A stretch of 64,000 nucleotides of DNA, from contig OX597830.1 of NCBI GenBank assembly GCA_951406725.2, positions 26,226,001-26,290,000 of the forward strand, read 5' to 3'. The notes beneath the pieces were generated by a model, which saw only the letters and a list, made by a program, of their open reading frames with translations, searched no databases and was not told the origin of the DNA. Position 1 is the stretch's first letter; each line of letters opens with the position of its first letter. Positions 2,302 through 46,602 of this stretch are shown piece by piece. A program made the position numbers and the translations under genes. This DNA comes from Octopus vulgaris (taxonomy: Eukaryota).

Positions 2302-4221
2302 TTAATCTGCCCCTTTAGAAAAAAAATGTCCATGTAAATTTACGCTTCGACATTTAGGCAAGGAGTATTTCCAAGTCGGTATGTCTGTAAATGATTCGTT
2401 TACTACCAGAGCCATTCCTTCAAAGGTATGAAATGCCATGTGGCAATGCATAAACCATAAGCCAGGATTATTGGCTTTCAGTCTGACAACAACGTAACCA
2501 CCTGAGGGTAATGTTACAGTATCCTTTAAGGGAGGGTTTACTAAATTCAATCCGGGTATATTGTCTCCTTTCCATGTCTTATTTCGCCAGACTGGATTAT
2601 TACAATATTCATACCCCGTGTTACCGTAACACATGATATCCTTATTAATTGAAATTAATTTTCCTGTTGTTTTGTTATAGGTAGGAAAACCCATTTTCAC
2701 CACATGAAAAGAATGGCCGTGTAAATGTATAGGGTGAGAAACTCCATAAATTCTGTGCATATTTGTTAAAACTAGTTGAACATTATTACCATTTGATAAC
2801 GTTATTGAATGCGTGCATGAGCAAGTTTTTCCAGGACCACATTCAGTTTCTTTGCACAATGTTTTTACTTCATTTGGTTGGAGCAATGGGTTGACATGAG
2901 GATAAAGAAAACTTCGTCCATTCACGGAAGCTGTACCATTAGGAAAAGCGAAATTAAGAAAATATTCTTCCCAATGGTGCTCTTCATACTTTGGTACATT
3001 TTGAACTTTAGGCGAACGGAGACCAGAAATGGAATGGCATCTTTTATTATATTTTACTGGAAAATACATAAATGGACAGTTGAGGACATCACAGACTGTA
3101 CGACTACAGTTTTTGCTTCTGCTGGTCGGATCTGTATCTGAGGCTCCTTCGTATGATAATATGGCTTCGAATGTTTGATTTAGATTCTCTGTTAACGTTT
3201 TACCTCGAATCCAATAATTTTTTATGTTTTTGTTAGTTGTTATGAAGAAATCATATCGTTCTCCTGGCTGTATGATGACAGAATCGTAAAAAGATCCTTT
3301 CAAATCTGCTCCATCAGACGCTACAATCTGAAGAGGATGGGAATCAATTGAAAATTCAAAAGGCAATTCACTGGCCGCGGAAATAACTCGGAATCGATAC
3401 ATTCGATCTTGTTGAACGTTAAATCTTGATAACGGTGCCCCATTGTGATGTCCTCGTTTGTCATAATATCGTCCTCTGCCGTTTACTAATCCAGATGTAT
3501 ACAGAAAGCCCCCTAAATACGTTCCATCATATGTTCTTAAGTCGGGCGTTATTTTCCCATGTAATGCATTGAAATAGTTTGTTTTCATCCATGCTTTATT
3601 CGCATTCCAAAAGTGATTGTATTCACTAATTATTAAAACCTTCTCCTGAATAATAGGAGGTTTATCCCGTACAATAAGCGCTCCATAAAGTCCCATTATC
3701 CTTTGTAATCCGATATGAGAATGGTAGAAATATGTACCTGTCTTAGTGGCATTGAATATGTAAATGAACGACTCACTTGGTTGTATTGGACACTGGGTAA
3801 CAAAGCTAACACCATCCATAAATGGAGATCCTACTTGGTCAATTCCATGCCAATGTAAGCTGGTAGCAGTGGACCACAATTCATTTGTGACTTTTATGAT
3901 GACAGTCTGGTTGATGAAAACTTCAATGGTAGGGCCTGGGATAGTTTCATTTACAGTGATTGCTAACCATTGGTCATCATAACCATCCATGGTTAATACA
4001 TCATCAGCATCGATGTAATGTTTGCCTTTGTGGAAATAATACAGTTTGCCGTCGATAATTTCGACTGAATGGCCATGATAGGTCATCGGTAGTTTGTGAG
4101 TAACGGTTAAACTAAACTCACATACTGTGTCTTCGTAGCGGCAGGAATTACGTCTTGCTAAGGTAACATAACTCGGGTTAACAAGCATCAGTACCAGTAC
4201 CAACAGGAAAAATGCAGACAT
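2302..4221 (-). CDS. Secreted laccase-like multicopper oxidase, paralog A (639 aa, single coding exon)
   Basis: N-terminal hydrophobic signal peptide; all four copper motifs present: HWHG, YHSH, HPIHLHGH, HCHMAFH...GM (axial Met); Cys-rich insertions typical of animal laccases; uninterrupted ORF. Confidence 0.96.
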   Translation of the reverse strand: MSAFFLLVLVLMLVNPSYVTLARRNSCRYEDTVCEFSLTVTHKLPMTYHGHSVEIIDGKLYYFHKGKHYIDADDVLTMDGYDDQWLAITVNETIPGPTIEVFINQTVIIKVTNELWSTATSLHWHGIDQVGSPFMDGVSFVTQCPIQPSESFIYIFNATKTGTYFYHSHIGLQRIMGLYGALIVRDKPPIIQEKVLIISEYNHFWNANKAWMKTNYFNALHGKITPDLRTYDGTYLGGFLYTSGLVNGRGRYYDKRGHHNGAPLSRFNVQQDRMYRFRVISAASELPFEFSIDSHPLQIVASDGADLKGSFYDSVIIQPGERYDFFITTNKNIKNYWIRGKTLTENLNQTFEAILSYEGASDTDPTSRSKNCSRTVCDVLNCPFMYFPVKYNKRCHSISGLRSPKVQNVPKYEEHHWEEYFLNFAFPNGTASVNGRSFLYPHVNPLLQPNEVKTLCKETECGPGKTCSCTHSITLSNGNNVQLVLTNMHRIYGVSHPIHLHGHSFHVVKMGFPTYNKTTGKLISINKDIMCYGNTGYEYCNNPVWRNKTWKGDNIPGLNLVNPPLKDTVTLPSGGYVVVRLKANNPGLWFMHCHMAFHTFEGMALVVNESFTDIPTWKYSLPKCRSVNLHGHFFSKGAD

Positions 4222-4236
4222 CTTTAAAGTTCGAAG

Positions 4237-4265
4237 CTAGAAACTGGAAGAGAAAGAAGAAATCG
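4237..4265 (-). promoter_or_regulatory. Candidate 3' splice acceptor 22 nt upstream of laccase A ATG
   Basis: Minus strand reads TTTCTTCTTTCTCTTCCAG|TTTCTAG|CTTCGAACTTTAAAGATG: polypyrimidine tract plus AG (4245-4244), alternative AG at 4238-4237; identical in copy B. Confidence 0.65.
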
Positions 4266-4366
4266 ACATCAACAACAACAAAACAACAACAACAGCAATA
4301 AAACGACTAAATACTAACAACAAAAGTCTTAACTTTATACTCTTCCTTCTCTTACGATGATCATCA

Positions 4367-4580
4367 GGCTGTGAGAGGACGAAATTGATAACGCGCCGGA
4401 AAAGGGAAAAAAAAACGCTTATCGACATTTCGCACGTCTTCACGTTCTGAGTTCAATTTCTGTCGAGGTCGACTTTGCTTTTCATCCCTTTCGGGGTCAA
4501 TGAGATGAATACTAAGATTGATGTAATTTTCTAGTCCCCATCCCACAAAATTTCGACTTTGTACCAAAGGTAGACGAAAT
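4367..4580 (+). mobile_element. Degenerate tRNA-derived SINE
   Basis: Carries family core GTTCTGAGTTCAA..GAGGTCGACTTTGCTTTTCATCC seen in many copies in the window; paralog at ~40187-40400. Confidence 0.75.
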
Positions 4581-5097
4581 TATTCTGCTGTTATATTGTA
4601 TTCGTACTCTAGGTGCTTCAATTAGGCTTCCTATTAAAGCCCTTCCATGCTGTTCACGACTATCCTTACTTCCGTGTCGAGAACCCTCTATATAATTCTA
4701 AGTGATCTCAACACACTAGTTTCTTGCACTACAGCCACTCCCTTATTGAGATCTATTTTCTCATAGTTTACTTTCAGTTTCTTCGTCACTATTTTCACAA
4801 CTGATACTTATCTTTTGACTTTATCGTTTAACCCTGAAAACTTCTGTAATCCAGTATTTGAGAATTTGGTAGTCCAAGTGTGTATTACTATTCTACTTAT
4901 ACAATTTCCTTTATTTAATATTAAGTGAACATGCCACGTCAAATACGAGACACCGTCTTCACCTTCTTATCAATGACTACAATATCCTGCTTCTTGTTCC
5001 CGACTTACTTTTCAAATTTTCAGGCTAAGTCCCATAACTGGATTACTTCATTGTTTTCTAAGAACTTTCATATATGTACCAACAAAAAGGTTTTAAC

Positions 5098-5206
5098 CTC
5101 CTCCTCCTCATTCTTCTTCTTCTTCTTCTTCTTCTTCTTCTTCTTCTTCTTCTTCTTCTTCTTCTTCTTCTTCTTCTTCTTCTTCTTCTTCTTCTTCTTC
5201 TTCATC

Positions 5207-5240
<34 letters not shown>

Positions 5241-5247
5241 TACTATT
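5098..5247. repeat. (TTC)n(TTA)n microsatellite
   Basis: Directly visible. Confidence 0.95.
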
Positions 5248-6100
5248 CAGTAGTTTTATTTTTATAGCGTGCTTTCACTTCACTACCGAGCACAGCTCTG
5301 TGTGCCTTGGGTATGTGCTGTGATTTGTTGTGATGCTCTGATGGTTCTGTATGGAAAGTGTTCTGCGTAGGATGTGTGCAGTGCCTAGTAGTGCAATTTT
5401 CTGTATGTTATATGTGTTTGTAAGTCCTGGTGTCTTTGTTATGTATTTGTCTGAATTTTTTTTATCATGCCTAATGCACCTACTATGATAGGAATTGTTT
5501 CTGTTTTCAGGTTCCACATTCTAGTTACCTCTATTTCCAGGTCTTTGTATTGTGAGAGTTTCTCCATTTCTTTTAGAGACACGTTGTCATCTGCCGGTAT
5601 TGATACATCAATTAGAAAGCATTTTTTTCTTCATGATCTCTGACAACTATATCTGGTCTGTTGGCCTTAATTTCTCTATCTGTGTGTATCGGCATATCCC
5701 AGAGTATGGTTGCTTTCTCGTTTTCTGTGACCTTTTCTGGTGTGTGCCTATACCATCTTTTTTCTGTTGTTATTCCATAATGTTGGCATAGCTTCCAATG
5801 TATGTAGGTTCCAACTCTGTCATGTCTGTGAATATATTCCTTCTTAGCCAAGACTGGGCAGCTAGAGATAATATGATTTATTGTTTCTTGTCCATCTCCA
5901 CATATTCTGCAGTTACTTGTAATATTTCTTTTAATTACATGTTTTTGGTAATTTCTGGTGGGGAGGCTTTGGTCTTGTGCTGCAATTAAAAATCCCTCTG
6001 TTTCTGCTTTGAGTCCTGAGATTCTCAACCATTGCTGGGATTTTTCTTTGTCTATTTCTTTTGCCTTTAGTTTAGTTTAGTTTAGTCTATTTCTTTTGCG

Positions 6101-6102
<2 letters not shown>
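5248..6102 (-). mobile_element. 5'-truncated R4/Dong-like retrotransposon, family 3 (frameshifted)
   Basis: Minus-strand ORFs 5612-6028 and 5275-5517 give AAQDQSLPTRNY, CRIC..ETINHIISSC, RHD, NRPDIV, ALLGTAHILRRTLS; flanked by (TTA)n; site is empty in copy B (40940-41087). Confidence 0.88.

Positions 6103-6195
<93 letters not shown>
6102..6195. repeat. (TTA)n microsatellite
   Basis: Directly visible. Confidence 0.95.
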
Positions 6196-6197
<2 letters not shown>

Positions 6198-6574
6198 TCT
6201 GGGTCTATAGAATAAATTACCAGTCAAATATTGGGGTCAGTATTATTAACAAAACCTTCCCCTAAAAACTGAAGTCCTTATGCTTAAACCAGATGTCGAC
6301 CGAGTCTGTAGTGATGATCGCACTGCTGCCCTCCTTCAATCGGGCAGGCAAGGCAGTTTTTCTTTGCCTGGTGGGTGTGGCGAAAGAGCTTGTTTGGTGG
6401 ACAAAGCTGAAATGCATGAGGACAGATGATACATTCCTCTCATTGACTTCTTCAGGTTCACTTGAAAAGGAAATTGAGAGTGGAGATGCAAGTACTGTTC
6501 TCAAGTGAGTTTACTGAAAGGTGGTTGAAAGTTGCAAAAATGGCAAGGGTGTATGGTACATTTCTAAGGGCAGA

Positions 6575-6712
6575 CCTGTGAATCCACTGAGATCGACCTT
6601 ACCGTTTATCCTTTCGGGGTCGATAAATTAGGTAGCAGATGTGTACTGGAGTCGATCTAATCGACTGGCCCCCAGCCCCAAAATTTAGGGCCTTATTCCT
6701 TAAGCAGAAAAG

Positions 6713-6791
<79 letters not shown>

Positions 6792-7570
6792 GGGTGGCGA
6801 GCTGGCATCATTTCTTTAAAAATATTCAAATGCAAATGGATCTTTTATAATAGCTTCTGATTTAGGCACAAGGTCAGCAATTTTGAGAGGTGGGGCAGCA
6901 GTCGATATTATCGACTCTTGTACTTTAGTTATTTTGTCGCCTACGGAGAGATGAAAAGCAAAGTTAACTTCGTCAGAAGTGACGGTACAGAAAAATTGCA
7001 CATAAAATGTTCGATGCCCCAACCATTCTGCCTGCTCACAGCTTTGGCGCTATAAATAGTTTCTGATTTAGGCAGAAGGCTAACAGATTTGAGTGGAGTA
7101 GATTAGTCAATACCATCGCGTCCAATACTTGATTGCTGCATTCTTAGCAATGAATTAAAATATATTGACTCTGGTAAAATATGATTGTATTGAAATAAAT
7201 ATTGGCTCCAAATTCTGGCACAAGACCAGTGATTTCATGGGTGGAGTGAGGCTAAGTCGATTACACTTACCCTCGTGTTCAACTGGTACTTCTTTTATCG
7301 AGCCTGGGAAGATAAAAAGAAAAGACAACCTCGCGGAATTTGAACTCAGAACATAAAGACCGAAATGCCGCTATTTTTTCCCGGTGTGCTAACGATTCCA
7401 CCAGCTTGTCACCTTTGCATTGAAATAGATACTGGTTTCAAATATTGGCACAAGGCCAGCAAATTTGAGGAGAGAGTAAGTCAATTAAATCGACCCCGAA
7501 TGTCAGCCTCGGCGGAATTTGATCCCAGTACGTAGAGACAGACGAAATACTGCTAAGCAGTTTTGCCCAG
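6575..7570. mobile_element. Cluster of degenerate SINE fragments in both orientations, with a (TTA)n tract at 6712-6790
   Basis: Recurrent SINE motifs (CCTTTCGGGGTCGATAAATTA, GGTGGCGAGCTGGCA, GGCACAAGGCCAGCAA, GCGGAATTTGAACTCAGAAC). Confidence 0.7.
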
Positions 7571-7835
7571 TTCAATGAAGTTAAAACCTGGTCTGGTTCT
7601 CATGTCTTTTATTATTGTATTTAATAAAAAGTTTTTGTCAAGAACTCAACTGTCAGTTAATTGCATTTTGAAATATGATGATTACTATGAACGTATGAAA
7701 GCGCTAATTGAACTTTATGAACATTACAAAATATTGTTTTAATGTTTAACACACTTCAACGTAGTAAAACATTTTTTTCAAATACAATCGTAAAAAAAGG
7801 GAGAACCAGACAATGTTTTAACTTTGTTCAACAGA

Positions 7836-7973
<138 letters not shown>

Positions 7974-8029
7974 TGTCTGTATGTCTCTCTATCTCTCTCT
8001 CTCTCTATATATATATTTTTTTTTTCCTG

Positions 8030-8338
<309 letters not shown>

Positions 8339-8360
8339 CATATATATATATATATATACA

Positions 8361-11300
8361 TTTGACAAAGTAGTAAAGTAGTGTCTCATTTGTGTCTTAA
8401 GTTCTCCTAGATAGAGCGGCCGAAATATCTCTCAAAACCTACGTTCGGGTTTTATAGGGGAAAACCTTTTTAACAAAGTAGTAAAGTAGTGCCTCATTTG
8501 TGTCATAGGTTCTCCTAGATGTAGCGGCCGAAATATCTCTCAAATCCTAGCTTCGGGTTTTATAGAGGAACACATATCTAACAAAGTAGTGCCTCATTTG
8601 TTGTATCTTAAGTTCTCCTAGATGTAGCGGCCGAAATATCTCTAGAATCCTCGCTTCGGGTTTTATAGGGGAAAACCTTTTTGACAATGTAGTAAAGTAT
8701 TGCTTCATTGTGTCTTATGTTCTCCTAGATGTAGCGGCCGAAATATCTCTAGAATCCTACCTTCGGGTTTTATAGGGGAACGCATATTTGACAAAGTAGT
8801 GCCTCATTTGTGTGTTATGTTCTCTTAGATGTAGCGGCCAAAATATCTCTCAAATCCTACCTTCGGTTTTATAGGGGAAAACAAATTTGACAAAGTAGTA
8901 AAGTAGTGCCACATGTGTGTCTTATGTTCTCCTAGAGGTAGCGACCGAAATATCTATCAAAACCTACCTTCGGGTTTTATAGGGGAAAACGTATTTGACA
9001 AAGCAGTAAAGTAGTGCCTCATTTGCGTCTTATGTTCTCTTAGATGTAGCGACCGAAATATCTCTCAAAAACTACCTTTGGGTTTTATAGGGGAAAACAT
9101 ATTTGACAAAGTAGTAAAGTAGTGCCTCATTTGTATCTTATGTTCTTCTAGATATAGCGGCCGAAATATCTCTCAAAACCTACCTTCGGGTTTTATAAGG
9201 GAAAACCTATTTGACAGAGTAGTAAAGTATTGCTTCATTTGTGTTTTATGTTCTCCCAGATGTAGCGCCGAAATATCTCTCAAATGCTAATTTCGGCTTT
9301 TATAGGGGAATTTCTATATGACAAAGTAGTAAAGTAGTGCCTCATTTGTGTCATATGTTCTCCTAGATGTAGCGGCTGAAATATCTCTCAAATCCTAACT
9401 TCGGGTTTTATAGGGGAAAACCTCTTTGACAAGGTAGTAAAGTAGTGGATCATTTGTTTCTTATGTTCTCCTAGATATAGCGGCCGAAATATCTCTCAAA
9501 TCCTACCTTCCGGTTTTATAGGGGATAACCTATTTGACAAAGTAGTAAAGTAGTGCCTCATTTGTGCCTTATGTTCTCCTAGATGTAGCGGCAGAAATAT
9601 CTCTCAAGTCTTACCTTCGGGTTTTATTGGGGAAAACATATTTGACACAGTAGTAAAGTAGTGCCTCATTTGTTTCTTACGTTCTCCTAGATGTAGCGGC
9701 CAAAATATCTCTCAAATCTTACCTTCGGGTTGTATAGGGGAAAACCTATTTGACAAAGTAGTAACGTAGTGCATCATTTGTGTATTATGTTCTCCCTGAT
9801 GTAGCACCCGAAATATCTCTGAAAATCTACCTTCGGGTTTTATAGAGAAAAACATATTTGACAAAGTAGTAAAATAGTGCCTCATTTGTCTCTTATGTTC
9901 TCCTAGATGTAGCAGTCGAAATATCTCTCAAAACTACCTTCGGGTTTCATAGGGGAAAACCTATTTGATAAAGTAGTAAAGTAGTGCCTCATTTGTGTCA
10001 TAGGTTCTCCTAGATGTAGCGGCCGAAATATCTCTCAAATCCGAGCTTCGGGTTTTATAGAGGAACACATATCTGACAAAGTAGTGCCTCATTTGTTGTG
10101 TCTTAAGTTCCCCTAGATGTAGCGGCCGAAATATCTCTAGAATCCTAGCTTCGGGTTTTATAGGGGAAAACCTATTTGACAAAGTAGTCAAGTAGTGCCT
10201 CATTTGTATCTTATGTTCTCCTAGATGTACCGGCAGAAATATCTCTCAAATCCTACCTTCGGTTTTATAGTGGTAAACCTATATGACAAAGTAGTAAAGT
10301 AGTGCCACATTTGTGTCTTATGTTCTCTTAGATGTAGCGGCCGAAATATATCTCAAATCCTTCCTTCGGGTTTTATAGTGGTAAACCTATATGACAAAGT
10401 ATTAAAGTAGTGCCTCATTTGTGTCTTATGTTCTCCTAGATGTAGCGGCCGAAATATCTCCAAATACTACCTTCGGCCTGTCTAGGGGAAGACCTATTTG
10501 ACAAAGTAGTAAAGTAGTGCCTCATATGTGTCTTATGTTCTCGTTGATGTAGCGGCTGAAATCTCTCTCAAATCCTACATTCGGGTTTTATAAGGGAAAC
10601 CTATTTGACAAAGTAGTAAAGTAGTGCCTCAATCGTGTCTTATGTAGATGTAGGGGAAAACCTATTTGACAAAGTAGTAAAGTATTGCCTCAGTTGTGTT
10701 TTATGTTCTCCCAGATGTAGCGGCCGAAATATCTCTCAAATGCTAATTTCGGCTTTTATAGGGGAAAACCTATATGACAAAGTAGTAAAGTAGTGCCTCA
10801 TTAGTGTCTTCTTTTCTCCTACATGTAGCCGCTGAAATATCTCTCAAACCCTACTTTCGGCTTTTATAGGGGAAAACCTATTTGACAAAGTAGTAAAGCA
10901 GTGCCTCATTTGTGTCTTATATTCTCCTAGATGTAGCGGCCGAAATATCTCTCAAATCCTACCTTTGGGTTTTATAGGGGAAAACCTATTTGACAAAGTA
11001 GTAAAGTAGTGCCTCTTTTGTGTCTTATATTCTCCTAGATGTAGCGGCCGAAATATCTCTCAAATCCTACCTTTGAGTTTTATAGGGGAAAACCTATTTG
11101 ACAAAGTAGTAAAGTAGTGCCTCTTTTGTGTCTTATATTCTCCTAGATGTAGCGGCTGAAATATCTCTCAAATCCTACCTTTGGGTTTTATAGGGGAAAA
11201 CCTATTTGACAAAGTAGTAAAGTAGTGCCTCTTTTGTGTCTTATATTCTCCTAGATGTAGCGGCCGAAATATCTCTCAAATCCTACCTTTGAGTTTTATA

Positions 11301-14300
11301 GGGGAAAACCTATTTGACAAAGTAGTAAAGTAGTGCCTCTTTTCTGTCTTATATTCTCCTAGATGTAGCGGCCGAAATATCTCTCAAATCCTACCTTTGA
11401 GTTTTATAGGGGAAAACCTATTTGACAAAGTAGTAAAGTAGTGCCTCTTTTGTGTCTTATATTCTCCTAGATGTAGCGGCCGAAATATCTCTCAAATCCT
11501 ACCTTTGGGTTTTATAGGGGAAAACCTATTTGACAAAGTAGTAAAGTAGTGCCTCTTTTGTGTCTTATATTCTCCTAGATGTAGCGGCCGAAATATCTCT
11601 CAAATCCTACCTTTGGGTTTTATAGGGGAAAACCTATTTGACAAAGTAGTAAAGTGGTGCCTCTTTTGTGTCTTATATTCTCCTAGATGTAGCGGCCGAA
11701 ATATCTCTCAAATCCTACCTTTGAGTTTTATAGGGGAAAACCTATTTGACAAAGTAGTAAAGTAGTGCCTCTTTTGTGTCTTATATTCTCCTAGATGTAG
11801 CGGCCGAAATATCTTTCAAATCCTACGTTCGGGTTTTATAGGTGAAAACCTATTTGACAAAGTAGTAAAGTAGTGCCTCTTTTGTGTCTTATATTCTCCT
11901 AGATGTAGCGGCCGAAATATCTCTCAAATCCTATATTTGAGTTTTATAGGGGAAAACCTATTTGACAAAGTAGTATAGTAGTGCCTCTTTTGTGTCTTAT
12001 ATTCTCCTAGATGTAGCGGCCGAAATATCTCTCAAATCCTACGTTCGGGTTTTATAGGGGAAAACCTATTTGACAAAGTAGTAAAGTAGTGCCTCTTTTG
12101 TGTCTTATATTCTCCTAGATGTAGCGGCTGAAATATCTATCAAATCCTACCTTCGGGTTTTATAGGGGAAAACTTATTTTACAAAGTAGTAATGTAGTGC
12201 CTCATTTGTGTCTTATGTTCTCCTAGATGTAGCGGCTGAAATATCTCTCAAATCCTACCTTTGGGTTTTATAGGGGAAAACCTATTTGACAAAGTAGTAA
12301 AGTAGTGCCACTTTTGTGTCTTATATTCTCCTAGATGTAGCGGCCGAAATATCTCTCAAATCCTACCTTTGAGTTTTATAGGGGAAAACCTATTTGACAA
12401 AGTAGTAAAGTAGTGCCTCTTTTGTGTCTTATATTCTCCTAGATGTAGCGGCCGAAATATCTCTCAAATCCTACCTTTGAGTTTTATAGGGGAAAACCTA
12501 TTTGACAAAGTAGTAAAGTAGTGCCTCTTTTGTGTCTTATATTCTCCTAGATGTAGCGGCCGAAATATCTCTCAAATCCTACCTTTGAGTTTTATAGGGG
12601 AAAACCTATTTGACAAAGTAGTAAAGTAGTGCCTCTTTTGTGTCTTATATTCTCCTAGATGTAGCGGCCGAAATATCTCTCAAATCCTACCTTTGAGTTT
12701 TATAGGGGAAAACCTATTTGACAAAGTAGTAAAGTAGTGCCTCTTTTGTGTCTTATATTCTCCTAGATGTAGCGGCCGAAATATCTCTCAAATCCTACCT
12801 TTGAGTTTTATAGGGGAAAACCTATTTGACAAAGTAGTAAAGTAGTGCCTCTTTTGTGTCTAATATTCTCCTAGATGTAGCGGCCGAAATATCTCTCAAA
12901 TCCTACCTTTGAGTTTTATAGGGGAAAACCTATTTGACAAAGTAGTAAAGTAGTGCCACTTTTGTGTCTTATATTCTCCTAGATGTAGCGGCTGAAATAT
13001 CTCTCAAATCCTACCTTTGGGTTTTATAGGGGAAAACCTATTTGACAAAGTAGTAAAGTAGTGCCTCTTTTGTGTCTTATATTCTCCTAGATGTAGCGGC
13101 TGAAATATCTCTCAAATCCTACCTTTGGGTTTTATAGGGGAAAACCTATTTGACAAAGTAGTAAAGTAGTGCCTCTTTTGTGTCTTATATTCTCCTAGAT
13201 GTAGCGGCTGAAATATCTCTCAAATCCTACCTTTGGGTTTTATAGGGGAAAACCTATTTGACAAAGTAGTAAAGTAGTGCCTCTTTTGTGTCTTATATTC
13301 TCCTAGATGTAGCGGCCAGAAATATCTCTCAAATCCTACCTTTGAGTTTTATAGGGGAAAACCTATTTGACAAAGTAGTAAAGTAGTGCCTCTTTTGTGT
13401 CTTATATTCTCCTAGATGTAGCGGCTGAAATATCTCTCAAATCCTACCTTTGGGTTTTATAGGGGAAAACCTATTTGACAAAGTAGTAAAGTAGTGCCTC
13501 TTTTGTGTCTTATATTCTCCTAGATGTAGCGGCTGAAATATCTCTCAAATCCTACCTTTGGGTTTTATAGGGGAAAACCTATTTGACAAAGTAGTAAAGT
13601 AGTGCCTCTTTTGTGTCTTATATTCTCCTAGATGTAGCGGCCGAAATATCTCTCAAATCCTACCTTTGGGTTTTATAGGGGAAAACCTATTTGACAAAGT
13701 AGTAAAGTAGTGCCTCTTTTGTGTCTTATATTCTCCTAGATGTAGCGGCCGAAATATCTCTCAAATCCTACCTTTGAGTTTTATAGGGGAAAACCTCTTT
13801 GACAAAGTAGTAAAGTAGTGCCTCTTTTGTGTCTTATATTCTCCTAGATGTAGCGGCCGAAATATCTCTCAAATCCTACCTTTGGGTTTTATAGGGGAAA
13901 ACCTATTTGACAAAGTAGTAAAGTAGTGCCTCTTTTGTGTCTTATATTCTCCTAGATGTAGCGGCCGAAATATCTCTCAGATCCTACCTTTGGGTTTTAT
14001 AGGGGAAAACCTATTTGACAAAGTAGTAAAGTAGTGCCTCTTTTGTGTCTTATATTCTCCTAGATGTAGCGGCTGAAATATCTCTCAAATCCTACCTTTG
14101 GGTTTTATAAGGGAAAACCTATTTGACAAAGTAGTAAAGTAGTGCCTCTTTTGTGTCTTATATTCTCCTAGATGTAGCGGCCGAAATATCTTTCAAATCC
14201 TACGTTCGGGTTTTATAGGTGAAAACCTATTTGACAAAGTAGTAAAGTAGTGCCTCTTTTGTGTCTTATATTCTCCTAGATGTAGCGGCCGAAATATCTC

Positions 14301-17300
14301 TCAAATCCTACCTTTGAGTTTTATAGGGGAAAACCTATTTGACAAAGTAGTATAGTAGTGCCTCTTTTGTGTCTTATATTCTCCTAGATGTAGCGGCCGA
14401 AATATCTCTCAAATCCTACGTTCGGGTTTTATAGGGGAAAACCTATTTGAAAAAGTAGTAAAGTAGTGCCTCTTTTGTGTCTTATATTCTCCTAGATGTA
14501 GCGGCCGAAATATCTCTCAAATCCTACCTTTGAGTTTTATAGGGGAAAACCTATTTGACAAAGTAGTAAAGTAGTCCCTCTTTTGTGTCTTATATTCTCC
14601 TAGATGTAGCGGCCGAAATATCTCTCAAATCCTACCTTTGAGTTTTATAGGGGAAAACCTATTTGACAAAGTAGTAAAGTAGTGCCTCTTTTGTGTCTTA
14701 TATTCTCCTAGATGTAGCGGCCGAAATATCTCTCAAATCCTACCTTTGAGTTTTATAGGGGAAAACCTATTTGACAAAGTAGTAAAGTAGTGCCACTTTT
14801 GTGTCTTATATTCTCCTAGATGTAGCGGCTGAAATATCTCTCAAATCCTACCTTTGGGTTTTATAGGGTAAAACCTATTTGACAAAGTAGTAAAGTAGTG
14901 CCTCTTTTGTGTCTTATATTCTCCTAGATGTAGCGGCTGAAATATCTCTCAAATCCTACCTTTGGGTTTTATAGGGGAAAACCTATTTGACAAAGTAGTA
15001 AAGTAGTGCCTCTTTTGTGTCTTATATTCTCCTAGATGTAGCGGCTGAAATATCTCTCAAATCCTACCTTTGGGTTTTATAGGGGAAAACCTATTTGACA
15101 AAGTAGTAAAGTAGTGCCTCTTTTGTGTCTTATATTCTCCTAGATGTAGCGGCTGAAATATCTCTCAAATCCTACCTTTGGGTTTTATAGGGGAAAACCT
15201 ATTTGACAAAGTAGTAAAGTAGTGCCTCTTTTGTGTCTTATATTCTCCTAGATGTAGCGGCTGAAATATCTCTCAAATCCTACCTTTGGGTTTTATAGGG
15301 GAAAACCTATTTGACAAAGTAGTAAAGTAGTGCCTCTTTTGTGTCTTATATTCTCCTAGATGTAGCGGCCGAAATATCTCTCAAATCCTACCTTTGGGTT
15401 TTATAGGGGAAAACCTATTTGACAAAGTAGTAAAGTAGTGCCTCTTTTGTGTCTTATATTCTCCTAGATGTAGCGGCCGAAATATCTCTCAAATCCTACC
15501 TTTGAGTTTTATAGGGGAAAACCTATTTGACAAAGTAGTAAAGTAGTGCCTCTTTTGTGTCTTATATTCTCCTAGATGTAGCGGCAGAAATATCTCTCAA
15601 ATCCTACCTTTGAGTTTTATAGGGGAAAACCTATTTGACAAAGTAGTAAAGTAGTGCCTCTTTTGTGTCTTATATTCTCCTAGATGTAGCGGCCGAAATA
15701 TCTCTCAAATCCTACGTTCGGGTTTTATAGGGGAAAACCTATTTGACAAAGTAGTAAAGTAGTGCCTCTTTTGTGTCTTATATTCTCCTAGATGTAGCGG
15801 CAGAAATATCTCTCAAATCCTACCTTTGAGTTTTATAGGGGAAAACCTATTTGACAAAGTAGTAAAGTAGTGCCTCTTTTGTGTCTTATATTCTCCTAGA
15901 TGTAGCGGCCGAAATATCTCTCAAATCCTACGTTCGGGTTTTATAGGGAAAACCTATTTGACAAAGTAGTAAAGTAGTGCCTCTTTTGTGTCTTATATTC
16001 TCCTAGATGTAGCGGCTGAAATATCTCTCAAATCCTACCTTTGGGTTTTATAGGGGAAAACTTATTTTACAAAGTAGTAATGTAGTGCCTCATTTGTGTC
16101 TTATGTTCTCCTAGATGTAGCGGCCGAAATATCTCTCAAATCCTACCTTTGGGTTTTATAGGGGAAAACCTATTTGACAAAGTAGTAAAGTAGTGCCTCT
16201 TTTGTGTCTTATATTCTCCTAGATGTAGCGGCTGAAATATCTATCAAATCCTACCTTTGGGTTTTATAGGGGAAAGCTTATTTTACAAAGTAGTAATGTA
16301 GTGCCTCATTTGTGTCTTATGTTCTCCTAGATGTAGCGGCCGAAATATCTCTCAAATCCTACCTTTGAGTTTTATAGGGGAAAACCTATTTGACAAAGTA
16401 GTAAAGTAGTGCCTCTTTTGTGTCTTATATTCTCCTAGATGTAGCGGCCGAAATATCTCTCAAATCCTACCTTTGAGTTTTATAGGGGAAAACCTATTTG
16501 ACAAAGTAGTAAAGTAGTGCCTCTTTTGTGTCTTATATTCTCCTAGATGTAGCGGCCGAAATATCTCTCAAATCCTACCTTTGAGTTTTATAGGGGAAAA
16601 CCTATTTGACAAAGTAGTAAAGTAGTGCCTCTTTTGTGTCTTATATTCTCCTAGATGTAGCGGCTGAAATATCTATCAAATCCTACCTTCGGGTTTTATA
16701 GGGGCAAACTTATTTTACAAAGTAGTAATGTAGTGCCTCATTTGTGTCTTATGTTCTCCTAGATGTAGCGGCCGAAATATCTCTCAAATCCTACCTTTGG
16801 GTTTTATAGGGGAAAACCTATTTGACAAAGTAGTAAAGCAGTGCCTCATTTGTGTCTTATGTTCTCCTAGATGTAGCAGTCGAAATATCTCTCAAAACTA
16901 CCTTCGGGTTTCATAGGGGAAAACCTATTTGATAAAGTAGTAAAGTAGTGCCTCATTTGTGTTATAGGTTCTCCTAGATGTAGCGGCCGAAATATCTCTC
17001 AAATCCTACCTTTGGGTTTTATAGGGGAAAACCTATTTGACAAAGTAGTAAAGTAGTGCCTCATTTGTTGTGTCTTAAGTTCCCCTAGATGTAGCCCCCG
17101 AAATATCTCTAAATTCTAGCTTCGGGTTTTATAGGGGAAAACCTATTTGACAAAGTAGTCAAGTAGTGCCTCATTTGTATCTTATGTTCTCCTTGATGTA
17201 CCGGCAGAAATATCTATCAAATCCTACCTTCGGGTTTTAAGGGGTAAACCTATGTGACAAAGTACTAAAGTAGTGCCTCATTTGTGTTTTATGTTCTCCC

Positions 17301-18839
17301 AGATGTAGCGGCCGAAATATCTCTCAAATGCTAATTTCGGCTTTTATAGGGGAATTTCTATATGACAAAGTAGTAAAGTAGTGCCTCATTAGTGTCTTAT
17401 ATTCTCCTAGATGTAGCGGCTGAAATATCTATCAAATCCTACCTTCGGGTTTTATAGGGGAAAACTTATTTTACAAAGTAGTAATGTAGTGCCTCATTTG
17501 TGTCTTATGTTCTCCTAGATGTAGCGGCCGAAATATCTCTCAAATCCTTCCTTTGGGTTTTATAGGGGAAAACCTATTTGACAAAGTAGTAAAGCAGTGC
17601 CTCATTTGTGTCTTATGTTCTCCTAGATGTAGCGGCTGAAATATCTATCAAATCCTACCTTCGGGTTTTATAGGGGAAAACTTATTTTACAAAGTAGTAA
17701 TGTAGTGCCTCATTTGTGTCTTATGTTCTCCTAGATGTAGCGGCCGAAATATCTCTCAAATCCTACCTTTGGGTTTTATAGGGGAAAACCTATTTGACAA
17801 AGTAGTAAAGCAGTGCCTCATTTGTGTCTTATGTTCTCCTAGATGTAGCAGTCGAAATATCTCTCAAAACTACCTTCGGGTTTCATAGGGGAAAACCTAT
17901 TTGATAAAGTAGTAAAGTAGTGCCTCATTTGTGTTATATGTTCTCCTAGATGTAGCGGCCGAAATATCTCTCAAATCCTAGCTTCGGGTTTTATAGTGGA
18001 ACATATATCTGACAAAGTAGTGCCTCATTTGTTGTGTCTTAAGTTCCCCTAGATGTAGCCCCCGAAATATCTCTAGAATTCTAGCTTCGGGTTTTATAGG
18101 GGAAAACCTATTTGACAAAGTAGTCAAGTAGTGCCTCATTTGTATCTTATGTTCTCCTAGATGTAGCGGCCGAAATATCTATCAAATCCTACCTTCGGGT
18201 TTTAAAGGGGTAAACCTATGTGACAAAGTACTAAAGTAGTGCCTCATTTGTGTTTTATGTTCTCCCAGATGTAGCGGCCGAAATATCTCTCAAATGCTAA
18301 TTTCGGCTTTTATAGGGGAATTTCTATATGACAAAGTAGTAAAGTAGTGCCTCATTAGTGTCTTATATTCTCCTAGATGTAGCGGCTGAAATATCTATCA
18401 AATCCTACCTTCGGGTTTTATAGGGGAAAACTTATTTTACAAAGTAGTAATGTAGTGCCTCATTTGTGTCTTATGTTCTCCTAGATGTAGCGGCCGAAAT
18501 ATCTCTCAAATCCTTCCTTTGGGTTTTATAGGGGAAAACCTATTTGACAAAGTAGTAAAGCAGTGCCTCATTTGTGTCTTATGTTCTCCTAGATGTAGCG
18601 GCTGAAATATCTATCAAATCCTACCTTCGGGTTTTATAGGGGAAAACTTATTTTACAAAGTAGTAATGTAGTGCCTCATTTGTGTCTTATGTTCTCCCAG
18701 ATGTAGCAGTCGAAATATCTCTCAAATCCTACCTTCGGCTTTTATAGGGGAATTTCTATTTGACAAAGTAGCAAAGTAGTGCCTCATTTGTTGTGTCTTA
18801 TGTTCTCCTAGATGTAGCGGCTGAAATATCTCTCAAATC
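8361..18839. repeat. 108-bp tandem satellite array 1 (~97 monomers)
   Basis: Monomer GACAAAGTAGTAAAGTAGTGCCTCATTTGTGTCTTATGTTCTCCTAGATGTAGCGGCCGAAATATCTCTCAAATCCTACCTTCGGGTTTTATAGGGGAAAACCTATTT; same phase recurs at 10981 and 11521 (5 x 108); no long ORF. Confidence 0.97.
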
Positions 18840-19287
18840 ACACTGTCGACTTGAAAATGAAAGACGTATTGGATAAGGTAGTCGCACATATACTATGACT
18901 CAAAAAATAAAACAATACAGGATAGTAACAGCTAAATGAGATTTCGTCGTTGGCATATTCAATGAGAGTAGACGTGCGGATCAACAACAAAACAATGATC
19001 ACCAGCACCACCACCATCATCATCACAAGAACAACAACAACGACAACAACAGCAACAACAACAACAACAACAACAACAATAGCAACAACAACACAAGCAG
19101 TTAATAATAGTTCAGGCCACTTAACTGTATCCAGGAGTGTAATTTTGGTAGACTTTACCAAATTAAGCTACGGGAAAATGGCTGCGATGCGAAGGGGTAT
19201 TAACTATAGAAGAGAAAGAATATCCATCGGGATTTGACGAGCAAACACTCACATTAATTAAACAAAGCGAAGTAAAAGCATAAATCA

Positions 19288-19371
19288 ACTCACTTATATT
19301 TTCGATCTTGATACTCTTGTTCGTAATGTCGTTTGTAAGTAACCTTTTTCTCCAATGGCTTCCTTTATATA
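19288..19371 (-). promoter_or_regulatory. Candidate TATA promoter, initiator and ~47-nt non-coding exon 1 of laccase A
   Basis: Minus strand: TATATAAAGG (19371 downward), TTA(+1)CTT initiator-like site at 19340 (31 nt after TATA start), exon to 19294, then donor AA|GTGAGT; all conserved in copy B. Confidence 0.5.
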
Positions 19372-38107: not shown

Positions 38108-40021
38108 TTAATCTGCCCCTTTAGAAAAAAAATGTCCATGTAAATTTACGCTTCGACATTTAGGCAAGGAGTATTTCGAAGTCGGTATGTCTGTAAATGA
38201 TTCGTTTACTACCAGAGCCATTCCTTCCGAAGTATGAAATGCCATGTGGCAATGCATAAACCATAAGCCAGGATTATTGGCTTTCAGTCTGACAACAACG
38301 TAACCACCTGAGGGTAATGTTACAGTATCCTTTAAGGGAGGGTTTACTAAATTCAATCCGGGTATATTGTCTCCTTTCCATGTCTTATTTCGCCAGACTG
38401 GATTATTACAATACCCCGTGTCACCGTAACACATGATATCCTTATTAATTGAAATTAATTTTCCTGTTGTTTTGTTATAGGTAGGAAAACCCATTTTCAC
38501 CACATGAAAAGAATGGCCGTGTAAATGTATAGGGTGAGAAACTCCATAAAGTCTGCCTATATTTGATAAAACTAGTTGAACATTATTACCGTTTGATAAC
38601 GTTATTGAATGCGTGCATGAGCAAGTTTTTCCAGAACCACATTCAGTTTCTTTGCACAATGTTTTTACTTCATTTGGTTGGAGCAATGGGTTGACATTAG
38701 GATAAAGAAAACTTCGTCCATTCACGGAAGCTCTACCATGAGGAAAAGCGAAATTAAGAAAATATTCTTCCCAATGGTGCTCTTCATACTTTGGTACATT
38801 TTGAACTTTAGGCGAACGGAGACCAGAAATGGAATGGCATCTTTTATTATATTTTACTGGAAAATACATAAATGGACAGTTGAGGACATCACAGACTGTA
38901 CGACTACAGTTTTTGCTTCTGCTGGTCGGATCTGCATCTGAGGCTCCTTCGTATGATAATATGGCTTCGAATGTTTGATTTAGATTCTCTGTTAACGTTT
39001 TACCTCGAATCCAATAATTTTTTATGTCTTTGTTAGTTGTTATGAAGAAATCATATCGTTCTCCTGGCTGTATGATGACAGAATCGTAAAAAGATCCTTT
39101 CAAATCTGCTCCATCAGACGCTACAATCTGAAGAGGATGGGAATCAATTGAAAATTCAAAAGGCAATTCACTGGCCGCGGAAATAACTCGGAATCGATAC
39201 ATTCGATCTTGTTGAACGTTAAATCTTGATAACGGTGCCCCATTGTGATGTCCTCGTTTGTCATAATATCGTCCTCTGCCGTTTACTAATCCAGATGTAT
39301 ACAGAAATTGCCCTAAATACGTTCCATCATATGTTTTTAAATCGGGCGTTTTTTCCCCATGTAATGCACTGGAATAGAATGTTTTCAGCCATGCTTTATT
39401 CGCATTCCAAAAGTGATTGTATTCACTAATTATTAAAACCTTCTCCTGAATAATAGGAGGTTTATCCCGTACAATAAGTGCTCCATAAAGTCCCATTATC
39501 CTTTGTAATCCGATATGAGAATGGTAGAAATATGTACCTGTCTTAGTGGCATTGAATATGTAAATGAACGACTCACTTGGTTGTATTGGACACTGGGTAA
39601 CAAAGCTAACACCATCCATAAATGGAGATCCTACCTGGTCAATTCCATGCCAATGTAAGCTGGTAGCAGTGGACCACAATTCATTTGTGACTTTTATGAT
39701 GACAGTCTGGTTGATGAAAACTTCAATGGTAGGGCCTGGGATAGTTTCATTTACAGTGATTGCTAACCATTGGTCATCATAACCATCCATGGTTAATACA
39801 TCATCAGCATCGATGTAATGTTTGCCTTTGTGGAAATAATACAGTTTGCCGTCGATAATTTCGACTGAATGGCCATGATAGGTCATCGGTAGTTTGTGAG
39901 TAACGGTTAAACTAAACTCACATACTGTGTCTTCGTAGCGGCAGGAATTACGTCTTGCTAAGGTAACATAACTCGGGTTAACAAGCAGCAGTACCAGTAC
40001 CAACAGGAAAAATGCAGACAT
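38108..40021 (-). CDS. Secreted laccase-like multicopper oxidase, paralog B (637 aa, single coding exon)
   Basis: Same signal peptide and copper motifs as paralog A; ~22 substitutions and a 2-aa indel relative to A. Confidence 0.96.
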   Translation of the reverse strand: MSAFFLLVLVLLLVNPSYVTLARRNSCRYEDTVCEFSLTVTHKLPMTYHGHSVEIIDGKLYYFHKGKHYIDADDVLTMDGYDDQWLAITVNETIPGPTIEVFINQTVIIKVTNELWSTATSLHWHGIDQVGSPFMDGVSFVTQCPIQPSESFIYIFNATKTGTYFYHSHIGLQRIMGLYGALIVRDKPPIIQEKVLIISEYNHFWNANKAWLKTFYSSALHGEKTPDLKTYDGTYLGQFLYTSGLVNGRGRYYDKRGHHNGAPLSRFNVQQDRMYRFRVISAASELPFEFSIDSHPLQIVASDGADLKGSFYDSVIIQPGERYDFFITTNKDIKNYWIRGKTLTENLNQTFEAILSYEGASDADPTSRSKNCSRTVCDVLNCPFMYFPVKYNKRCHSISGLRSPKVQNVPKYEEHHWEEYFLNFAFPHGRASVNGRSFLYPNVNPLLQPNEVKTLCKETECGSGKTCSCTHSITLSNGNNVQLVLSNIGRLYGVSHPIHLHGHSFHVVKMGFPTYNKTTGKLISINKDIMCYGDTGYCNNPVWRNKTWKGDNIPGLNLVNPPLKDTVTLPSGGYVVVRLKANNPGLWFMHCHMAFHTSEGMALVVNESFTDIPTSKYSLPKCRSVNLHGHFFSKGAD

Positions 40022-40913
40022 CTTTAAAGTTCGAAGCTAGAAACTGGAAGAGAAAGAAGAAATCGACATCAACAACAACAAAACAACAACAATAACAACA
40101 AAACAACAACAACAGCAATAAAACGACTAAATACTAACAACAAAAGTCTTAACTTTATACTCTTCCTTCTCTTACGATGATCATCAGGCTGTGAGAGGAC
40201 GAAATTGGTAACGTGCCGGAAAAGGAAAAAAAAACGCTTATCGACATTTCGCACGTCTTCACGTTCTGAGTTCAATTTCTGTCGAGGTCGACTTTGCTTT
40301 TCATCCCTTTCGGGGTCAATGAGATGAATACTAAGAATGATGTAATTTTCTAGTCCCCATCCCACAAAATTTCGACTTTGTACCAAAGTTAGACGAAATT
40401 ATTCTGCTGTTATATTGTATTCGTACTCTAGGTGCTTCAATTAGGCTTCCTATTAAAGCCCTTCCATGCTGTTCACGCCTATCCTTACTTCCGTGTCGAG
40501 AACCCTCTATATAATTCTAAGTGATCTCAACACACTAGTTTCTTGCACTACAGCCACTCCCTTATTGAGATCTATTTTCTCATAGTTTACTTTCAGTTTC
40601 TTCGTCACTATATTCACAACTGATACTTATCTTTTGACCTTATCGTTTAACCCTGAAAACTTCTGTAATCCAGTATTTGAGAATTTGGTAGTCCAAGTGT
40701 GTATTACTATTCTACTTATACAATTTCCTTTATTTAGTATTAAGTGAACATGCCACGTCAAATACGAGACACCGTCTACACCTTCTTATCAACGACTACA
40801 ATATCCTGCTTCTTGTTCCCGACTTCCTTATTGCTTTCTAAGAACTTTCATATATGTACCAACAAAAAGGTTTTAACCTCCTCCTCGTCATTCTTCTTCT
40901 TCTTCTTCTTCTC

Positions 40914-41088
<175 letters not shown>

Positions 41089-41616
41089 TCTGGGTCTATA
41101 GAATAAAGTACCAGTCAAATATTGGGGTCAGTATTATTAACAAAACCTTCCCCTAAAAACTGAAGTCCTTATGCTTAAACCAGATGTCGACCGAGTCTGT
41201 AGTGATGATCACACCGCTGTCCTCCTTCAATCGGGCAGGCAAGGCAGTTTTTCTTTGCCTGGTGGGTGTGGCGAAAGAGCTTATTTGGTGGACAAGGCTG
41301 AAATGCACGCGGACAGATACATTCCTCTCATTGACTTCTTCAGGTTTCACTTGAAAAGGAAATTGAGAGTGGAGATGCAAGTACTGTCCTCAAGTGAGTT
41401 TACTGAAAGGTGGTTAAAAGTTGCAAAAATGGCAAGGGTGTATGGTACGTCTCTAAGTGCAGACCTGTGAATCCATCGAGATCGACCTTACCGTTTATCC
41501 TTTCGGGGCCGATAAATTAGGTAGCAGATGCGTACTGGAGTCGATCTAATCGACTGGACCCCAGCCCAAAAATTTAGGGCCTTATTCCTAAAGCAGAAAT
41601 GATTGTTATTATTTTT

Positions 41617-43664
41617 TTTTTCTTCTTTCAAATCTGCTTCCATTTCTTGCCGAGTGTCTTCCCGACTCCTAGGGCAATAAAACTCATAGTATACATTGAT
41701 AGGCCATTAAACTAAACTCAATAGTTCGTTCATTTTTTTTTTAAGTTAAAATTAAAATACATGGGTAGTAATAGTCGTCACATCGACAATGCTCTTCTCA
41801 ATACGTGTGATGTACCAGTTAAGACAATCTTTTGCACTTCTTGCAGGGATGGTAAGCCAGGGATCATTCTCATATAATTTTCTGTTCCCTTCTTGATCAT
41901 TCCTAGTGCTCCTACGATCACTGGTATTGTAACCGCCTTGAGATGCCACATTTTCTCAATTTCAATGAGCAGGTCTTTATATTTTCTGAGCTTGTCAAAT
42001 TCTTTCGCCGAGATATTATGATCACAGGGGATGCTCATGTCGATCAATAAGCAAACTTTATAGTTTTGGTCTTTCACAGCAATATCTGGTTTATTGACTT
42101 TGATGGTTCGGTCTGTATGTACTGGAAAGTCCCACAAAATCGTTACATTTTCTCCTTCAGTTACAGCTTCAGGGTGGTGATTATACCACTTGTCGGCAGT
42201 TCTGATATTGTAATGCCGACTTATTAGCCAGTGTATATATAGGCCAACTCTGTCATGTCTTAATTTATACTCCACTGGTGCTAAGACTTTACATCCAGAG
42301 ATTAGGTGATCCACTGTTTCAATCATGTCGTTGCAGAATCGGCATTTTGGGCCTGCTCCATTTTTCATGACATTGGCCTGGTAGTTCCGGGTTAATAGGC
42401 TTTGATCTTGAGCAGCCAGGATGAAACCTTCGCTCTCTGCTTTTAGCCCTGAGCTCCGTAGCCACTGATGGGTTTGCTTCTGGTCAACATCAGCTTGTTT
42501 GCTGCGGGCCACATATTTGCCGTGCAGAGGTTTCTCCTCCCACCTATCAGCCAATTGCTCGTGCGCTTTTTCGTTGCCATTATTTTCACCTTCTTTGCAA
42601 CAATAGTTGTCGTACTTCCCTCGGGTTGTTCAGTTTGGGTATCCTGCACGAGATCAATAGCAAATTTTTTGCTTTGCTTTATGATAGAATGAAGCTTCTT
42701 TCGTCTCTCGTGATTTTCCACGAGCTTTAGTATCCAGTCATTCGTTATTTCAAGATATTTGGCCAGTCCAATTGTGGTTGTTTTGTAAGCTAGTTCAAAT
42801 TGGATGAGGCCTCGACCTCCTTGGGCTCTGCCTTTGGGTGGTCTGCCTTTGGATGGTGCATCCTATTACAACTCAGCAGCTTTCGTATTTTCCTATCTAT
42901 ATTCTTTACTTCACTCATATTCCAGTTCAACACATTGTAGCTATAAGTAACAACTGGAACTGCTAAGGAATTTATAGCTAACACCTTGTTACGTGCACTT
43001 AGTTCAGATTTCAGGAATGCACGAACTCTCCTATAACATTCCTTCCTGATCTTCTCTTTCATGCTTGCATGCTGAATACCAGAGCCTTCATTTATCCCTA
43101 AATATTTGTATGTTTGTTCTTGCTCAAGCTCTCGTATGACTGTGTCAACATCTAACACGACTGAATTTGTGGTCTTCACTTTCCCTTTGTGGAAAGTGGC
43201 CTTGGCACACTTCTCAAGCCCAAACTCCATCCCGATGTCATCGCTGAATGCTTTCACAGTGTGCAATAGGCCTTCAAGTTCATTATCGTCTTTACCATAG
43301 AGTTTTAAGTCATCCATATAAAATAGATGGCTTATTTTTTTATTGGCAATTTTATACCCATACCCTGTTCTGTTTATTTCACTTCTAAGGGGTATTAGGG
43401 CTATGCAGAATATTAAAGGTGAAAGTGAGTCACCTTGGAAAATTCCACAGTTGATGTTTATATTTTCTGAGGCAAGTACTCCATTAGAGTGGTATAATTG
43501 GAGATTCGTATTCCACAACGACATATTGTGCTTCAGGAAGTTTGAAATCACAGGGGAAATTTTGAAGATGTCCAGCGATCTCAAGATCCATGGATGCGGT
43601 ATACTGTCGAAGGCCTTTTTATAGTCAATCCATGCGGAGTTGAGATTTCTGCGCTTGTTGTGAC
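41617..43664 (-). mobile_element. 5'-truncated R4/Dong-like retrotransposon, family 2 (frameshifted)
   Basis: GIFQGDSLSP, FYMDD, YKYLG, CRFC..ETVDHLISGC, RHD, KPD..D; site is an empty (TTA)n tract in copy A (6712-6790). Confidence 0.9.
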
Positions 43665-43679
43665 ATTATTATTATTATT

Positions 43680-44555
43680 ATTCTGTTTGACTTTTGCTTT
43701 ATATTTGTACAAGTTGGCTCCAAGTCTCACCCAGAGACCTCAAGAGACAACAGGGTTGGAAGTTCATGTTGTTATGTTGTTGTGAAGTTCCAGAGGAGTG
43801 AGATGTGGTCATTTTCAAGCAATGGGAGTGGTTTGTGTTCCCACCAGTTTTTTTCATGGGGCAAATCCAGGTTTTTACAGATTACCCAGTGAATATATTG
43901 TGCAGCTCTATCGTGCCTGTTGAGATACTCTGTAGGCGCTAGAAGACTGCACTTGGAGACCACATGGTCAATGGTTTCATTTTGATGCTTGCATACACGA
44001 CACGTTGGACTGCTTCTGATCTTTAATATGTTGGCGTGGTAGTTTCTTGTTGGTAGGCATTGATCTTGAGCTGCTATGATAAACCCCTCTGTTTCAGATT
44101 TTAAGCCATAGGCCATTAGCCATTGATGGGTCAGGGCTTTGTCAACATCTGCATTATTTGCTCTCTTTGGGTATTTGCCATAGAGAGGTTTTTCTTTCCA
44201 TTTATCATTCAGAATATCTAAGGCCGCAGTTTTAGCACGGGTTTTCATGCGCTTAGCTTTTTCTGTGCCTGTTTCTTGTATGTCTATCTCTAATTCCGAA
44301 ATTTGTTGTATTCGGAATTCACTTAGATATTCCTTTGCCTGTTTTGTTACTGAGTATGATGCTTTCTTGTTTTCATGTTTTGAGACAAGTTTTAACATCC
44401 AGTCCTCAGAGTTTTTCAGGTAGGTGTCTAGGCCAATTGTAGCAATCTTCATTGTTATTGCCAGTTGTAAAAGTCCACGGCCTCCCTCTTTTCTTGGCAG
44501 ATAAAGTCGTTCTGTATCTGCCTTAGGGTGGTGCATTCTATGCATTGTCAACAGT
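43680..44555 (-). mobile_element. 5'-truncated, internally deleted young family 1 copy
   Basis: Near-identical to 29033-29802 fused at ~43775-43785 to the last ~90 bp of the 3' UTR; flanked by (TTA)n. Confidence 0.9.
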
Positions 44556-44569
44556 TATTATTATTATTA

Positions 44570-44615
<46 letters not shown>

Positions 44616-45562
44616 GGTGGCCAGCTGGCAGCATTTCTTTAAAAATATTCAAATGCAAATGGATCTTTTATAATAGCTTCTGATTTAGGCACAAGGTCAG
44701 CAATTTTGAGAGGTGGGGCAGCAGTCGATATTATCGACTCTTGTACTTGATTGATAATTTATTTTGTCGCCTACGGAGAGATGAAAAGCAAAGTTAACTT
44801 CGTCAGAAGTGACGGTACAGAAAAATTGCGCATGAAATGTCCGATGCCCCAACCATTCTGCCTGCTCACAGCTTTGGCGCTATAAATAGTTTCTGATTTA
44901 GGCAGAAGGCTAACAGATTTGAGTGGAGTAGATTAGTCAATACCATCGCGTCCAATACTTGATTGCTGCATTCTTAGCAATGAATTAAAATATATTGACT
45001 CTGGTAAAATATGATTGATTTCATGGGTGGAGTGAGGCTAAGTCGATTACACTTACCCTCGTGTTCAACTGGTACTTCTTTTATCGAGCCTGGGAAGATA
45101 AAAAGAAAAAACAACCTCGCGGAATTTGAACTCAGAACATAAAGACCGAAATACCGCTATTTTTTCCCGGTGTGCTAACGATTCCACCAGCTTGTCACCT
45201 TTGCATTGAAATAGATACTGGTTTCAAATATTGGCACAAGGCCAGCAAATTCGAGAAGAGAGTAAGTCAATTAAATCGACCCCGAATGTCACCCACGGCG
45301 GAATTTGATCCCAGTACGTAGAGACTGACGAAATACTGCTAAGCCTTTTGCCCATCGCGGTAACGATTCTTTTCTACTCTAGGCACAAGGCCCGAAATTT
45401 GGTGGGAGGGAGCCAGTCGATTAGATCGACCCTAGTACGCAACTGCTTCTTAATTTATAGACCCCGAAAGGATGAAAGGCAAAGTGGGCCTTGGCGACTT
45501 TGTATGTTAACGGAACCATCTCACTAACAGACTCAGTCTGTTACATACAAGTTTACAAGTAC

Positions 45563-45880: not shown

Positions 45881-45921
45881 GTATGTATATAATCATTGGA
45901 AATTTACAGACACATATATAC

Positions 45922-45975
<54 letters not shown>

Positions 45976-46382: not shown

Positions 46383-46526
<144 letters not shown>

Positions 46527-46553: not shown

Positions 46554-46602
<49 letters not shown>

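Follow-up and report, generated by a model that had tools for sequence, protein, structure and literature searches.

The window analyzed here, a 64-kb stretch of Octopus vulgaris DNA, holds two laccase-like multicopper oxidase genes on the minus strand, each with a single coding exon. Copy 1 (2302..4221, 639 aa) was recognized by its open frame, Pfam domains, copper motifs and RNA-type contigs, and copy 2 (38108..40021, 637 aa) by its open frame, Pfam domains and a block of 98.1% identity to copy 1. PF07732 (Cu-oxidase_3), PF00394 (Cu-oxidase) and PF07731 (Cu-oxidase_2) were found in both copies, and copy 1 carries the four copper motifs HWHG, HSH, HPIHLHG and HCH at 123, 167, 496 and 592, respectively; these motifs, together with an N terminus that is hydrophobic by eye, predict a secreted copper oxidase as the product. 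Comparing the window with itself, we observe colinear blocks at approximately 1.9 to 22.3 kb and 37.6 to 57.9 kb, with an identity in self-alignment of 98.1% for the block with the coding exon and 94.9% for that with the first exon proposed below, and by this measure the pair is a recent tandem duplicate. The two proteins differ by 22 substitutions and a 2-residue deletion, and the differences are concentrated at residues 212 to 238 (8 differences; window 3508-3588) and 486 to 491 (4 differences; window 2751-2766). Residue 600, adjoining the last copper motif, also differs between the copies. Positive selection between the copies was considered and is unsupported (dN/dS 1.3, Fisher P = 0.68).

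With respect to known relatives, the pair falls in a 90% protein cluster containing laccase-2-like proteins from Octopus vulgaris, O. sinensis and O. bimaculoides, and shares its Cu-oxidase domains and copper motifs with cluster members XP_029656357.1 and XP_014768859.2. The Argonauta protein GAB1609403.1, at 73% identity to the octopus laccase, likewise has three Cu-oxidase domains and four copper motifs, and what distinguishes the pair from molluscan laccase-like multicopper oxidases is the recent tandem duplication. One O. sinensis protein (P0124) is a mosaic, with 16 of 24 differing columns copy-1-like, 7 copy-2-like and 1 neither, which suggests recombination or conversion between old variants. 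A metagenome scan with the laccase gave 14 pattern matches and 0 relatives. On the 3′ side of the genes, neither AATAAA nor ATTAAA occurs within 400 nt past the stop codon of either copy (copy 1: 2305-1900, minus strand), and three contigs continue for some 127 to 129 letters beyond 2230, up to the start of a TA-rich repeat.

Upstream of each coding exon lies an array of a 108-bp satellite unit. Array 1 (8360..18839) spans 10.5 kb and approximately 97 units (21.4 + 75.9 copies by Tandem Repeats Finder), and array 2 (48758..52541) spans 3.8 kb and approximately 35 units, such that array length differs markedly between two otherwise closely similar copies. Both arrays end some 420 to 450 nt below the donor site described below (454 nt for array 1), and their exon-side, right-hand junctions are identical, indicating that the array predates the duplication. 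The unit has no match outside the arrays within the window, and Rfam returned 0 matches across the window. Read on the laccase strand, the units contain TATAAAA 88 and 35 times, AG/GTAGG (the slash marking a potential exon-intron boundary here and below) 63 and 13 times, and AATAAA once in each array, so that there is little premature polyadenylation signal. Exact 40-mers in the arrays are repeated at nearest distances that also include 756, 966 and 2377 nt, which may point to a higher-order block structure.

Other repeats surround the pair. A LINE-type element lies between the copies (26841-30151, plus strand) with frames of 326 and 801 aa, of which the longer encodes reverse transcriptase and zf-RVT domains. 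LINE pieces of 87 to 99% identity are also present at 2-1268 and 43665-44556. At the left edge of array 1 sits a SINE-like segment (8040-8235, minus strand) with a tRNA B-box-like word by eye and no match elsewhere in the window, and a minisatellite of 26/77-bp period is found upstream of copy 2 (59022-59608).

The first-pass annotation had proposed a strong splice acceptor 22 nt before each ATG, and such acceptors are present. In copy 1, the acceptor (4244..4262, minus strand) has pyrimidines at 16 of 17 tract positions, ends in TCCAG at 4244, and is followed by 22 untranslated nucleotides (4222..4243) before the ATG at 4221; over the 62 nt above it (4307-4246), no further AG is found. Querying sequencing runs with the coding region of copy 1 gave a list of 24, of which 20 contain the stretch and none is recorded as RNA. 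The four runs that we examined (X1, X4, X9 and X13, from four studies and under two organism labels) are RNA by guess, and their contigs were aligned to 2230-5090, a segment that ends short of the array and the proposed exon. Within it, a repeat that begins 10 nt beyond the contig stop (4254-4307) was skipped. In 4/4 runs the laccase contig match ends exactly at 4243, and the next bin past the acceptor (4246-4341) has zero contig cover in all four. Because the match halts at 4243, where genomic DNA would have continued matching, the contigs behave as RNA spliced at this acceptor does, and the acceptor at 4243 is taken to be in use in copy 1.

Beyond 4243 the contigs carry unaligned letters, known by length alone: 30 in X1, 1 in X4, 12 in X9 and 57 in X13. 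The exact stopping point of the match constrains the joined exon, since a halt at 4243 means that the last base of that exon is not G, as in AA/GT. This excludes 3 of 18 other donor-like sites and leaves 15 of 18 compatible. The AAG/GTAGG of the array was also considered as the donor for 4243 and is rejected for the four contigs, as an exon ending in AG would push the match to 4245. All four contigs are of the copy-1 type, with the copy-2 letter at 1, 2, 2 and 2 of 42 differing columns; no copy-2-type contig was seen in the four runs, which were picked with copy-1 words, so that this has little bearing on copy 2. Further into the aligned segment, X13 has a 154-nt contig at 4706-4859 (depth 3.5) and most of 4244-5090 is uncovered; neither was used with respect to intron transcription. 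A dispersed short repeat at 4435-4498, which matches seven other places within the window, reaches summed contig depths of 30,000 to 76,000 in all four runs (bin 4438-4533).

Beyond the satellites, the first-pass annotation had described TATATAAAGG, an initiator-like TTACTT at 31 nt and an AA/GTGAGT donor 47 nt further on, and all three are where it placed them, in both copies and on the minus strand. In copy 1, TATATAAAGG (19362..19371) starts from 19371, the A of TTACTT lies at 19340, 31 nt past the first T, and the first base of the intron is 19293; in copy 2, the corresponding TATA-box-like element (53031..53040) starts at 53040, the initiator A is at 53009, the donor at 52962 and the acceptor at 40044. 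The likely first exon of copy 1 is accordingly placed at 19294..19340, its 3′ end being supported and its 5′ end uncertain (perhaps 19350-19358), and the first exon of copy 2 is predicted by homology at 52963..53009, with 45 of 47 bases equal to those of copy 1. Both TATA-box-like elements are sequence-level candidates; TATATAAAGG occurs at exactly two places in the window, one per copy, and the copy-1 occurrence adjoins an (ATAC)n repeat (19369-19463). The initiator-like A stands 31 nt below the TATA in both copies, with one mismatch to YYANWYY. We observe no ATG in either 69-nt leader (the mature length if transcription starts at 19340) or in the longer 65-nt piece described below, which agrees with the earlier view of the upstream exon as non-coding.

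Two further arguments in favor of this arrangement lose their weight on inspection. The conservation between copies is real but not independent: the 2 differences among the 47 bases of the first exons equal the background of the 94.9% identical block in which these lie, and conservation was therefore set aside as a sign of function. Nor is the combination of promoter and donor motifs by itself beyond chance. Under a rule built on consensus motifs (TATAWAWR, an initiator-like A at +29 to +33, a donor within 300 nt and no ATG), 54 of 200 local block shuffles of the 33.6-kb sequence above copy 1 produce one or more such sets. On the real sequence, the rule yields two candidates above copy 1, namely the set described here and a second one at 8242/8210/8155, and two distinct candidates above copy 2.

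An additional line of evidence comes from a public protein model. CAI9735095.1 (P0123), a 647-aa Octopus vulgaris protein and the third of this species in the 90% cluster, equals copy 2 over 624 aa and then continues with a 23-aa tail, the first 21 residues of which are the translation from 19358 downward, that is, of the copy-1 version of the proposed exon. After tail residue 21 the unspliced frame would read K and stop, whereas P0123 reads N, F and stop. An exhaustive splice search for the tail is satisfied by a single donor, the GTGAGT at 19293, and by three acceptors, at 9071, 6268 and 4243. The protein alone cannot choose among the three, and with 16 of 17 pyrimidines, versus 7 and 8 for the others, the acceptor at 4243 is most likely the correct one as judged from the tract; it is also the one at which the RNA-type contigs stop. 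With it, P0123 is rebuilt exactly, including the stop, from the copy-2 coding sequence at 40021-38150, a 65-nt piece treated as a coding exon (19358-19294) and 7 nt at 4243-4237, all on the minus strand, joined across two GT-AG introns (38149-19359 and 19293-4244). The public model thus very probably holds the intron proposed by the first-pass annotation, with the donor at 19293 in common and the acceptor at 4243 most likely in common; what differs is that P0123 treats the small exon as coding and joined to copy 2, whereas we assign it to copy 1 as a non-coding leader. The gene model had been described as hidden, and in this respect it appears to be already public, in garbled form.

The other intron of P0123 (38149-19359) ends in a purine-rich acceptor without a pyrimidine tract, and GAAGC flanks both sides of the joint between copy 2 and copy 1. 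A short sequence common to both sides of a joint is typical of template-switch or alignment artefacts. The join is likely such an artefact and P0123 a mis-joined model; the chimera may in part be an artefact of prediction. The O. vulgaris annotation described in PMC10700109 was built from RNA-seq and Iso-Seq data with STAR, minimap2, StringTie, Portcullis junctions, PASA, Augustus and EVM, as outlined in that paper. A 65-nt coding exon followed by a 7-nt last exon is otherwise hard to account for, which hints at junction reads behind P0123, and we infer that the model derives from this pipeline, with real junction reads underlying its intron.

Taken together, we consider it probable that copy 1 has a short first exon, likely ending at 19294, that is spliced over an intron of the 13-to-15-kb class to the acceptor at 4243. 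Transcription of each copy would start just beyond its satellite array, and in copy 1 the polymerase would make a short ATG-free exon and then copy a unique stretch of 454 nt together with the array, microsatellites and fragments of LINEs, after which the spliceosome would join 19294 to 4243 across 15,050 nt. The exon joined to 4243 would in this arrangement be the one at 19294..19340. Copy 2 would be processed likewise by homology, from an exon end at 52963 to the acceptor 22 nt before its ATG, and is presumed to be spliced as copy 1 is. Of the two 5′-UTR introns put forward in the first-pass annotation, the one in copy 1 (4244..19293, 15,050 nt, minus strand, GT-AG) has gained an acceptor used in 4/4 runs and a donor needed by P0123, and the one in copy 2 (40044..52962, 12,919 nt, minus strand) continues to stand on homology to copy 1. 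Given the intron, the position of the array inside it follows from the coordinates, and the arrays make up 70% and 29% of the respective introns. The array would then be copied into the pre-mRNA and lost with the intron as passive content, presumably with no regulatory role. That it acts instead as a length-variable control element, whose length tunes elongation or splicing and contributes to copy 1, but not copy 2, being seen in RNA, with read-through from copy 2 adding a tailed isoform, strikes us as highly improbable.

Where exactly the exon begins is less clear than where it ends. An exon of 47 nt, as originally proposed, accommodates three of the four overhangs (1, 12 and 30 letters), but the 57 letters of X13 exceed it by 10 and the P0123 piece is 65 nt long. 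It is about an even call whether the TATA box directs transcription to start at 19340, and the exon may be 57 to 65 nt. If the letters of X13 come from the proposed exon, they reach 19350, and a start there lies too close to the TATA box for the latter to position it. The same donor and intron with a longer exon, starting at or above 19350 and with TATATAAAGG not positioning the start, is a real possibility, though less likely than not. The reach of the P0123 piece to 19358 and the fact that the TATA letters adjoin a microsatellite fit such an exon. The 31-nt spacing from TATA to A in both copies speaks against it, as do the three overhangs that fit within 47 nt, and X13 is a contig of depth 6.4 with a different organism label whose additional letters may be residual adapter or template-switch sequence.

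A different exon altogether might be joined to 4243. The second set found by the promoter rule offers an example, a 55-nt candidate at 8210-8156 within the SINE-like repeat, with which the array would lie outside the transcript: it passes the TATA-initiator-donor rule, has a non-G last base and is close in length to the 57 letters of X13, and 15 of 18 donor-like sites satisfy the non-G clue in any case. For this candidate, however, no counterpart was found in the rest of the window, including copy 2. Its TATA coincides with the border of an (AT)n run and it cannot rebuild P0123, so that we regard a different exon as unlikely. Taking P0123 at face value, on the other hand, a genuine read-through transcript would extend from copy 2 into copy 1 and include the small exon internally as well, and the copy-2 enzyme would thereby gain a novel tail of 23 residues. 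The exact reproduction of P0123 with two GT-AG introns agrees with this, and read-through could account for an overhang longer than 47 nt. Against it stand the acceptor at 19359 without a pyrimidine tract, the GAAGC on both sides of the joint, a stop in the corresponding frame of copy 2's exon and the absence of the tail from the other six retrieved members of the 90% cluster, which make true read-through very unlikely. We thus retain a non-coding first exon of copy 1, with the donor at 19293, as the preferred reading.

5′-UTR introns that contain repeats are common in animals, and the laccase pair shares with animal genes that have a non-coding first exon both an ATG-free leader and a GT-AG intron ending just before the ATG; we see nothing different in kind. 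PMC2864569 gives a figure of approximately 35% of human genes for 5′-UTR introns. For O. vulgaris, PMC10700109 puts the median intron length at 2,467 bp and the repetitive share of the genome at 68.68%; on these values, a repeat-filled first intron of 13 to 15 kb, approximately 5 to 6 times the median, is long but not strange. The pair can also be compared with the Drosophila Y-loop genes kl-3 and kl-5, whose satellite-filled introns are transcribed as pre-mRNA according to PMC6508621. A satellite within an intron is common to both systems, with pre-mRNA transcription a matter of inference for the laccase pair. The Y-loop introns as described there measure megabases, make up more than 99% of the locus, consist of simple repeats and are served by dedicated RNA-binding proteins, whereas the laccase introns are of 15,050 and 12,919 nt, with arrays of a 108-bp unit taking up 70% and 29% of them and no sign of a special program, so that intron gigantism of the Y-loop type is excluded by intron size and array share. 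Octopus satellites are described as relatively methylated in PMC9476566. Among the matches listed for the laccase, octopus and satellite literature, a scope that left supplements and most subscription papers outside, no title concerns this locus or array; an annotation file in such supplements could already list the UTR exon.

These results indicate that the architecture is ordinary for animal genes and that the intron is probably correct. The locus opens no new kind of system, and the public isoform CAI9735095.1 is suggested to be a mis-joined model. For the laccase pair itself, the gene model means that the promoter likely lies 13 to 15 kb away from the coding exon, a point of relevance to promoter cloning and to the interpretation of expression. 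The pair is in addition a small natural comparison, in which near-identical genes carry an array of 97 versus 35 units in the same intron.
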